Positions 1,309 to 23,486 of a DNA stretch of 64,000 bases are shown here, in pieces. The translations under genes were made by a program, and so were the position numbers. Below the pieces are notes generated by a model. That model ran no database searches, was not told the DNA's origin, and saw only the letters and a list, made by a program, of their open reading frames with translations. How positions within the stretch are numbered: the stretch's first letter is position 1; each line of letters starts with the position of its first letter. Source of the DNA: Escherichia coli (lineage in GTDB: Bacteria > Pseudomonadota > Gammaproteobacteria > Enterobacterales > Enterobacteriaceae); the NCBI RefSeq assembly GCF_003018235.1, contig NZ_CP027437.1; one strand, 5' to 3'.

Positions 1309-1653
1309 TTATTTGCTATCGCGAATCCCTAAGCGTTGTAATAATCCGATAATCCCTTCCCGCAGAAGCAAGGATGTAAACTGTTTTTGTTCAACTGGCG
1401 TCATCTCTTTCGCCAGTGTCACCAGCAACACTTCAAGCGGCGCATCACCAGACAGGGCAGGCGCTTCTCCCTGACCTTCTGGACGTTCAGCATTGCGAAT
1501 ATATTCACGAACCTGTTCATTGACGTGAACCAGTCGGGCTTTGCCACCCTGGACGCCTGGTTTTGGTGACGTTGTCCAGCCTTCCTTGCGTACCCATTTA
1601 TTAATGGTCTGGCGGCTATAGCCGGTCAGTCTGGCAAGTTCATCTGGCGTCAT
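1309..1653 (-). CDS. yfeC: small putative HTH DNA-binding protein, about 114 aa (internal Met start chosen; ORF extends to 1668)
   Basis: ORF track; MTPDELARL start; paralog of yfeD. Confidence 0.75.
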   Translation of the reverse strand: MTPDELARLTGYSRQTINKWVRKEGWTTSPKPGVQGGKARLVHVNEQVREYIRNAERPEGQGEAPALSGDAPLEVLLVTLAKEMTPVEQKQFTSLLLREGIIGLLQRLGIRDSK

Positions 1654-1827
1654 CCTCTCCTTGAACATAACAATTCCCTGAATGTATGTGGGTCTATTAG
1701 TAGTTCATTTTATAACACCACTTTACAGGAAACCGTGACATGAATAACTACTGAATGCGAGCGGTTTTCCAAAATTGTTCATTTGCCTGATTTTTCAGCG
1801 ATTGAAACTACACGTTGCAATTTGCCG

Positions 1828-6054: not shown

Positions 6055-7302
<1,248 letters not shown>

Positions 7303-21756: not shown

Positions 21757-22995
21757 ATGGCTGACACTCGCCTTGAACGTCGCTTTACGCGCATTGATCG
21801 TCTCCCGCCCTACGTTTTTAATATTACCGCTGAACTGAAAATGGCTGCGCGTCGGCGCGGCGAAGATATTATCGATTTCAGTATGGGTAACCCGGACGGT
21901 GCGACTCCGCCGCATATCGTCGAAAAATTATGTACGGTGGCCCAGCGACTGGACACGCATGGTTACTCTACTTCACGCGGCATTCCGCGGTTACGTCGCG
22001 CCATTTCCCGCTGGTATCAGGATCGCTACGACGTCGAGATCGACCCGGAATCAGAAGCCATCGTCACCATTGGTTCGAAAGAGGGACTGGCGCATCTGAT
22101 GCTGGCGACGCTGGATCATGGTGACACTGTACTGGTGCCTAATCCAAGCTACCCGATTCATATTTACGGCGCGGTGATTGCCGGGGCGCAGGTACGCTCA
22201 GTGCCGCTGGTGGAAGGTGTCGATTTCTTCAACGAACTGGAACGCGCCATTCGCGAAAGTTATCCGAAACCGAAGATGATGATCCTCGGCTTCCCGTCGA
22301 ATCCAACCGCGCAATGCGTGGAGCTGGAGTTCTTCGAAAAGGTTGTGGCGCTGGCGAAACGCTACGATGTGCTGGTGGTCCATGACCTGGCCTATGCGGA
22401 CATCGTCTATGATGGCTGGAAAGCGCCGTCAATCATGCAGGTGCCGGGTGCACGCGATGTGGCGGTCGAGTTCTTTACGCTGTCGAAAAGCTACAACATG
22501 GCGGGCTGGCGTATCGGCTTTATGGTTGGCAACAAAACGCTGGTCAGCGCGCTGGCACGTATTAAAAGCTATCACGATTACGGCACCTTTACGCCGTTGC
22601 AGGTGGCAGCGATTGCGGCGCTGGAGGGCGATCAACAGTGCGTGCGCGACATTGCTGAACAGTACAAACTCCGCCGTGATGTACTGGTAAAAGGGCTGCA
22701 TGAAGCGGGCTGGATGGTCGAAATGCCGAAGGCTTCGATGTATGTCTGGGCGAAAATCCCGGAACCGTATGCTGCCATGGGCTCGCTGGAATTTGCCAAG
22801 AAGCTGCTGAACGAAGCGAAGGTCTGTGTCTCTCCGGGGATTGGCTTTGGCGACTACGGCGACACGCATGTTCGCTTTGCACTGATTGAAAACCGCGACC
22901 GTATTCGTCAGGCGATTCGTGGAATTAAAGCGATGTTCCGTGCCGACGGTTTATTACCCGCCAGCAGCAAACATATTCACGAAAACGCGGAATAA
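21757..22995 (+). CDS. alaC: glutamate-pyruvate aminotransferase (PLP-dependent), 412 aa
   Basis: ORF track; class I aminotransferase; synteny (yfdZ). Confidence 0.85.
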
Positions 22996-23012
22996 ACACC
23001 GACCTCAAAAAT

Positions 23013-23045
23013 GCAAACAGGAGCCTGATGGCTCCTGTTTTTCAT
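23013..23045. terminator. bidirectional Rho-independent terminator after alaC
   Basis: stem aaacaggagcc / ggctcctgttt with loop tgat, T-run downstream and A-run upstream. Confidence 0.7.
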
Positions 23046-23059
23046 TGCACAGTTTGCTT

Positions 23060-23131
23060 TTAGATCATCAGGGCAAAAGTACCGGCCCAAACGATGACCA
23101 TAAAAGAAATGCCCATAAAGAAATATTTCAC
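23060..23131 (-). CDS. ypdK: 23-aa small hydrophobic protein, (V/M)KYFFMGISFMVIVWAGTFALMI, apparent GTG start
   Basis: manual minus-strand translation; matches my recollection of K-12 YpdK; below the ORF-track size cutoff. Confidence 0.6.
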   Translation of the reverse strand: MKYFFMGISFMVIVWAGTFALMI

Positions 23132-23486
23132 TTTACATCTCTCCGCGTAATTACTGTTACGCCTGAATGACTTCATTACACCTGATACAGTGAGTTGACA
23201 CCGGGCAAAACGACCTTAAAAGTCCTGTATTCTACCGTGGGCATCACCCCAGAATTCTGAGCTAAACTGCTCCAGACGGCGCTAATGTACGCCTAAAACT
23301 GAAACGAGACAAGAGGCATTTTCTTATTTACTTTTAGTAACTTACAGGTGTCTCATATCGGCGACAGTTTAATTTCTGACGGTAATAATTAGAGATTCAG
23401 CGAAGGAAAAAACCTTAAGAAAAAAGCCATAAAAACCATGAGGTTATTATGGCTGATTTGAGGAGGGAAAGAGTTAGAGCAGTTTG

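Follow-up and report, generated by a model that had tools for sequence, protein, structure and literature searches.

The 23-codon reading frame at 23060-23131 on the minus strand of the analysed DNA (the window, a stretch of 64,000 nucleotides from Escherichia coli) is a real gene, ypdK, which had already been annotated, so that the original prediction of this frame was correct yet not new. Our work makes it very probable that ypdK is a chromosomal single-copy gene for a 23-residue protein with one transmembrane helix. Moreover, the gene forms an autonomous unit with its own promoter, a structured leader and its own terminator. Neither Rfam nor the searchable literature appears to contain a description of this conserved promoter, of the structured leader or of the GUG start codon, which is invariant.

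The predicted frame is ypdK

On the minus strand, the frame 23131..23060 reads GTG-KYFFMGISFMVIVWAGTFALMI-TAA; it opens with GTG AAA TAT TTC and closes with ATG ATC TAA, with the GTG at 23131..23129 and the TAA at 23062..23060. The translation of 23060-23131, VKYFFMGISFMVIVWAGTFALMI followed by the stop, corresponds to the product M/V-KYFFMGISFMVIVWAGTFALMI and is the very peptide that had been deduced from the letters of the sequence, and both the extent of the frame and its GTG start proved to be right. The same holds for the gene name: the RefSeq coding sequence ypdK (WP_010723117.1, "membrane protein YpdK"; locus 1601..1672, minus strand, in NZ_CP023820.1) maps exactly to 23060..23131 (minus strand), and an identical ORF is annotated as b4680, "putative membrane protein YpdK", in E. 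coli K-12 MG1655. The 23-residue form had been called unlisted, and so it is, since the mechanical ORF list merges the frame into a 38-residue ORF with an ATG start (23060..23176) that is listed in its place. The gene and its ribosome binding site are:

23060..23131, minus strand: ypdK coding sequence, 23 codons (translation, RefSeq, NF033437, conservation, K-12 footprints)
23141..23144, minus strand: Shine-Dalgarno sequence GGAG, 9 nt 5' of the GTG (sequence and conservation)

The peptide matches the NCBIfam equivalog model NF033437, which has 23 positions and a curated cut-off of 30 bits, with 57.5 bits (E = 9.4e-16; residues 1-23 on model positions 1-23 of 23). NCBI and UniRef list the exact 23-residue sequence under the name "membrane protein YpdK", and it is found on at least 1000 contigs. 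In a megablast search, the segment 22960-23500 of the window matched 5422 of the 5426 complete E. coli genomes, at a median of one site in each, and the features beneath these matches are ypdK, alaC and lpxP. The sequence of ypdK has no matches in Pfam, PADLOC, PHROGs or Rfam, and the supplements of the Salmonella small-protein census do not mention the gene. As compared to K-12, the window has the same amino acids, length, GTG codon and 15 nt of upstream sequence, and ypdK lies between lpxP and alaC in both. The leaders of K-12 and of the window are collinear and differ at four positions; three further differences lie 3' of the ypdK stop codon, and there are none in the ORF.

In E. coli, ypdK has been annotated since the small-protein survey of 2008, and the family has its own curated NCBI model. 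That survey, by Hemm et al. (2008), reportedly included an immunoblot of the tagged YpdK protein. For the genome scan, ypdK is thus a true positive in a class of genes that is missed by ORF-length cut-offs, and it adds nothing new. A tiling-array study (PMC3009722) lists ypdK among the 18 small membrane proteins that it attributes to Hemm et al. 2008.

The mere occurrence of a short hydrophobic ORF does not exceed chance in this window: 72 ORFs of at least 20 amino acids overlap the 4.5-kb stretch around ypdK, and among the 811 start-to-stop ORFs of 20-30 amino acids in the window ypdK ranks only 13th by its best 19-residue hydropathy. What raises ypdK above this background is that the reading frame, the GTG, the Shine-Dalgarno sequence and the residues are conserved in 75 species, and that the gene is already annotated. 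Short ORFs that are more hydrophobic than ypdK are found at 49732..49818 (minus strand), 58868..58945 (minus strand) and 7237..7302 (plus strand), an example being MILALTPMIQTILLLILILILILKIKNQ; these may be chance or antisense artefacts.

Frame, start codon and residues are conserved

Since circularity was to be avoided, the comparative set of loci from 80 Enterobacterales species was anchored on alaC rather than on ypdK. A YpdK-like ORF of 23-24 codons is present in 75 of the 80 loci. As for the other five, one contig is cut 53 nt past alaC, and four loci (Erwinia endophytica, Symbiopectobacterium, Lonsdalea and a contig labelled Pseudomonas) have no such ORF within 2.5 kb. The last of these, NZ_AUIE01000007.1 (L077, labelled Pseudomonas resinovorans DSM 21078), encodes an AlaC that is 91% identical to the E. 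coli protein, with no ypdK nearby. This identity is unexpectedly high for a Pseudomonas, and contamination, mislabelling or gene transfer are possible.

The start codon is GTG in all 75 ypdK loci, across three families. ATG and GTG usually interchange; an invariant GTG thus suggests that a weak or regulated start has been selected for. In 75 of 76 sequences, a GGAG motif precedes the GTG by 6-10 nt, and in 47 of these by 9 nt. Conservation of the frame and of the ribosome binding site among relatives had been proposed as a check of the prediction, and both are kept across the Enterobacteriaceae and beyond.

The substitution pattern is that of a coding sequence. Over 69 distinct nucleotide versions, the entropies of codon positions 1, 2 and 3 are 0.57, 0.18 and 1.13, respectively. 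The residues M1, Y3, M6, G7, S9, G17, T18 and F19 are invariant and K2, W15 and M22 nearly so; at each of G7, S9, G17 and T18 all four synonymous codons are used. The pooled pN/pS ratio is 0.27 in the annotated frame, whereas the two shifted frames give 1.18 and 2.23. Purifying selection, as judged from these alignments, holds the frame, the GTG, the GGAG and eight residues across the Enterobacteriaceae, the Erwiniaceae and Serratia. From the conservation of frame, GTG, Shine-Dalgarno sequence and residues and from the pN/pS ratios we conclude that the product is the 23-residue peptide and that its sequence is under selection.

ypdK is an autonomous transcription unit

The original prediction had placed the gene between alaC and lpxP. 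In the window, this location agrees with the RefSeq annotation; as a conserved partner, lpxP drops out, and it is alaC that is the conserved neighbour. The two genes stand tail-to-tail, and in about 70 of the 75 species ypdK is separated from the alaC stop codon by 36-106 nt. The neighbour on the other side is lpxP in only about 18-20 of the 75 species and an EmrA-like gene in 16 Erwiniaceae; at least 13 gene families occur there, including at least 11 besides lpxP and the EmrA-like gene, in either orientation. Since the upstream neighbour varies and lpxP has its own terminator-like hairpin, ypdK must carry its own signals, and co-transcription with lpxP was rejected as the main mode for the same reasons. 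The hairpin, AGCCATAA...TTATGGCT followed by a T-run at 23419..23454 (minus strand), lies about 33 nt past the lpxP stop codon and is probably the lpxP terminator; the terminator scan had missed it because its loop is long. The signals that we assign to ypdK are the following:

23317..23338, minus strand: A/T-rich block 5' of the -35 element (aaattaaataaaaaaat-type sequence, conserved in Enterobacteriaceae)
23307..23312, minus strand: -35 element TTGTCT, 17 nt from the -10 element
23284..23289, minus strand: -10 element TACATT (motif conserved across leaders)
23005..23040, minus strand: intrinsic terminator AAACAGGAGCC-atca-GGCTCCTGTTT followed by a T-run (terminator scan)

A motif TA[C/A/G/T]ATT occurs in all 70 distinct leaders, 120-192 nt (median 157) 5' of the GTG. 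At a spacing of 17-18 nt it is preceded by a -35 element that reads TTGTnn in Enterobacteriaceae and TTTATT in Erwiniaceae. The promoter, present in about 70 species, is of the sigma-70 type. The pair in the window has 8 of 12 matches, just below the threshold of the promoter scanner, which for this reason left it unlisted. The A/T-rich block resembles an UP element, a reading that we take from its sequence. Transcription is predicted to start about 7 nt past the -10 element, near 23277 (23277-23279), as judged from the motif and from a tiling array, in which a K-12 transcript runs from 148 nt 5' of the GTG into the ypdK ORF (PMC3009722 file S3). At the other end, the terminator hairpin (23040..23015) begins 19 nt past the ypdK stop codon, and a G+C-rich hairpin is present 3' of the stop codon in nearly all of the 76 loci. 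The convergent alaC gene ends at 22995, and since A-runs and T-runs flank the hairpin on both sides, it probably terminates alaC as well.

The synteny breaks exactly at the A/T-rich block 5' of the promoter (loci L002-L081). The families found beyond the promoter include lpxP, EmrA/EmrB-like genes and a beta-lactamase-like gene, among others, and in an O26 strain an stx prophage has inserted in the mlaA-ypdK interval (PMC6667211). The region beyond the ypdK promoter may be a hotspot of integration or rearrangement.

A second promoter-like motif lies within the leader: the window has CTGTATC at 23184..23190 (minus strand), where most Enterobacteriaceae have CTCTATACTCAG or CTCTATAATCAG about 50 nt 5' of the GTG (columns about 107-116 of the Enterobacteriaceae leader alignment A1). 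The motif, which is degenerate in E. coli and Citrobacter, resembles an extended -10 element of the sigma-S type (C-TATACT) and could be a second promoter or a part of the leader.

ypdK is transcribed and weakly translated

In K-12, ypdK is transcribed and bears ribosome footprints, and its translation efficiency is low. Ribosome profiling had been named as a second check of the prediction, and it was positive, since ypdK is present in the published data, where it is classed with the sORFs known before and given a GTG start (PMC10746267, Tables S3, S8). In that study, the Ribo-seq values are 1.6-14 rpkm in nine samples and the RNA-seq values 17-175 rpkm; the translation efficiency is 0.016-0.37, and these values are noisy for short ORFs and the footprint density is low. 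At pH 5.8 as compared to pH 7.6, the ypdK mRNA rises by 1.55 log2 (padj 0.003), the ribosome occupancy changes by -0.27 log2, which is not significant, and the translation efficiency falls by 2.6 log2 (p 0.0015, padj 0.088; PMC10746267). The tiling-array transcript increases by 1.06 log2 after UV irradiation (PMC3009722 file S3); a search by eye for a LexA box that would account for this induction found none.

The leader contains covarying helices

Between the predicted transcription start and the GTG, the ypdK mRNA has a leader for which three helices can be drawn:

23132..23279, minus strand: 5' leader of the ypdK mRNA, about 146-148 nt (predicted start and tiling-array transcript)
23257..23275, minus strand: 5' hairpin H1, CTGGAGC-agttta-GCTCAG, just past the predicted transcription start
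23192..23250, minus strand: long-range helix H2 (RNAalifold, A1 columns 43-53/96-106)
23145..23162, minus strand: hairpin H3, GCGTAA-cagtaa-TTACGC, abutting the 5' side of the Shine-Dalgarno sequence (RNAalifold, A1 columns 139-144/154-159)

We aligned the leaders of 35 Enterobacteriaceae (A1) and of 16 Erwiniaceae species (A2). The arms of H2, GGGGTGATGCC on the 5' side (23250..23240) and GGTGTCAACTC on the 3' side (23202..23192), enclose an insert of variable length; 94% of the cells are paired, and four pairs have changed on both sides (e.g. AU 13 / UG 11 / UA 7). In H3, which is also found in the single-sequence fold, 91% of the cells are paired and four of the six pairs show compensatory changes. 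Taken together, H2 and H3 are 93% paired in A1, with 57 double-change cells as compared to 21.9 ± 4.7 in shuffles. In A2, the 5' hairpin and a long hairpin next to the Shine-Dalgarno sequence are 95% paired, with 20 double-change cells as compared to 5.2 ± 2.0 in shuffles. With slid partners as controls, only 29-51% of the cells are paired, as opposed to the actual 93-95%. A hairpin at the position of H1 is seen across species with differing stem sequences, and covariation supports it in the Erwiniaceae only (A2 columns 20-29/34-41, five of eight pairs compensatory). The conserved 5' part of the leader contains single-nucleotide gaps, which speak against a coding function there, and no Rfam family matches the leader.

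It is tempting to regard this leader of about 146 nt as an undescribed cis-regulatory RNA that gates translation and thus uncouples protein synthesis from the induction of the mRNA, a proposal that we put forward tentatively and consider possible rather than probable. It is based on the three helices with compensatory changes, on the conserved promoter and on the invariant GUG in 75 species; the threefold increase of the mRNA at pH 5.8 with unchanged ribosome occupancy also counts in its favour. Translational restraint is suggested because the invariant GUG and the leader helices coincide with a low translation efficiency and with this rise of the RNA at pH 5.8 that the ribosomes do not follow. 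Possible signals are a small RNA, a metabolite, the temperature, or a cue related to the membrane or to acid.

Some further pairings deserve mention. In the Erwiniaceae (L054-L081), a conserved UCCU lies 5' of the first leader hairpin (A2 columns 16-19 with 142-145) and could pair with the AGGA of the Shine-Dalgarno region as an anti-Shine-Dalgarno sequence, with pairs that hardly vary. A stem of GGAGAGAUGU with codons 3-6, which appears in the single-sequence fold and would sequester the Shine-Dalgarno sequence and the start codon, is not claimed here, because it is absent from the consensus fold and would also be broken by the variable base after the GGAG. Similarly, a pairing of the -10 hexamer with the Shine-Dalgarno region that RNAalifold proposed was discarded: the hexamer probably lies outside the transcript, and the proposed pairs are invariant.

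YpdK may be a membrane-embedded partner of a larger protein

YpdK has a GRAVY value of 1.73, and K2 is its only charged residue. The single transmembrane helix that had been predicted for the protein fits its sequence, as residues 3-23 are uncharged and form one hydrophobic segment of bilayer length. YpdK would insert in the inner membrane and, by the positive-inside rule, do so with the N-terminus (fMet-Lys) in the cytoplasm and the C-terminus in the periplasm. The conserved residues form two blocks, K2-Y3-x-x-M6-G7-x-S9 and W15-x-G17-T18-F19-x-L21-M22, which are separated by five variable aliphatic positions. The two blocks might pack against a larger inner membrane protein, and the structured leader and the invariant GUG would keep the synthesis of YpdK at a low and probably conditional level.

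The most likely role of YpdK, although at somewhat less than an even chance, would be that of a membrane-embedded partner, i. e. a stabilising or regulatory subunit, of a larger protein. Such a role is played by AcrZ, KdpF, CydX, MgtS and MgrB, which like PmrR belong to the small single-pass inner membrane proteins of E. coli with larger membrane proteins as binding partners. Like them, YpdK is a protein of no more than 50 amino acids with a single hydrophobic helix, and its gene is chromosomal and conserved among enterobacteria. Unlike kdpF or cydX, ypdK does not share an operon with the genes of a membrane complex, and unlike proteins of the AcrZ type, YpdK with its 23 amino acids has almost no residues outside the membrane. 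The conservation of small residues suggests tight helix packing; the conserved positions are grouped at the two helix ends, however, and do not follow a single continuous face, so that an interface for packing is weakly grounded. In the alaC-anchored loci, no membrane protein gene that would hint at the partner is conserved beside ypdK, and we found no experimental report on the function, partner, location or topology of YpdK in the searchable literature. The invariant residues, the invariant GUG and the autonomous unit at the 3' end of alaC provide handles for the study of ypdK, as does the low translation efficiency despite the inducible mRNA.

Alternatively, ypdK might be the toxin of a module similar to type I toxin-antitoxin systems, in which the structured 5' UTR and possibly an antisense RNA hold synthesis low, while over-production damages the membrane. 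ShoB, ZorO and TisB are type I toxins with long processed 5' UTRs, and Ibs is another small hydrophobic toxin. Like ShoB, ZorO and TisB, ypdK encodes a hydrophobic peptide of only 23 amino acids, has a long structured leader, is weakly translated from a weak start codon (translation efficiency 0.02-0.37), and its mRNA responds to stress, i. e. to UV and mild acid. Type I toxins are, however, patchy in their distribution, duplicated and fast-evolving, whereas ypdK is a core-like single-copy gene (in 5422 of 5426 E. coli genomes) that lies strictly syntenic beside alaC in three families and 75 of 80 species, and specific polar and small residues of YpdK are under strong purifying selection. Moreover, ypdK is practically missing from true plasmids: it matches only 14 of 72,556 records, and most of these 14 are chromosome-sized or large and non-mobilizable. 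Both Rfam and the promoter scan were negative with respect to an antisense RNA: no sRNA family matches at ypdK, and the plus strand, the only promoter-like site of which lies at 23361-23389, has none within the unit. We therefore judge a toxin function to be quite improbable.

Even less probable, and in our view very unlikely, is the idea that ypdK is a regulatory mini-ORF for which the act of translation matters and the peptide has no function; translation would then affect the stability of the mRNA, the termination of transcription or the interference with the convergent transcription of alaC. The weak translation, the probably bidirectional terminator that ypdK has in common with alaC across the short gap kept in about 70 species, and a leader that is more elaborate than a gene of 23 codons seems to require would all fit. 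If only the act of translation counted, however, neither the use of all synonymous codons at invariant residues nor a pN/pS ratio of 0.27 in this frame as opposed to values above 1 in the others would be expected. In addition, no gene on the same strand lies 3' of ypdK and the terminator follows 19 nt past the stop codon, so there is nothing to attenuate; the same arrangement, a terminator and then the convergent alaC with no regulated gene downstream, also sets ypdK apart from the uORFs of leader peptides and attenuators.

Other start codons and small frames at the locus

That the true product is the listed 38-residue protein from the ATG at 23176, which has an AGGTG just 5' of it, is hardly credible and was rejected, since this distance is only 2 nt, the upstream in-frame ATG is found in E. 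coli sequences only and elsewhere the extension is absent, variable or stopped in frame, the 23-position NCBIfam model aligns to residues 17-38 of the longer form, and RefSeq and the K-12 annotation both use the GTG.

In another frame, an ATG is located 7 nt 5' of the GTG; in E. coli it is followed directly by a stop codon (ATG-TAA, 23138..23133, minus strand). This ATG is present in 43 of 76 sequences, where it opens frames of 1 to more than 60 codons; it was rejected as a coding start since the frame is not conserved and the ATG, at 2 nt from the GGAG, is too near to the Shine-Dalgarno sequence. Finally, the leader itself contains a 23-residue ORF with a GTG start, MMPTVEYRTFKVVLPGVNSLYQV (23176..23247, minus strand), which overlaps the variable insert within H2. 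Other genera conserve neither its length nor its sequence; in the E. coli representative L002, the frame is kept after a deletion of 33 nt.
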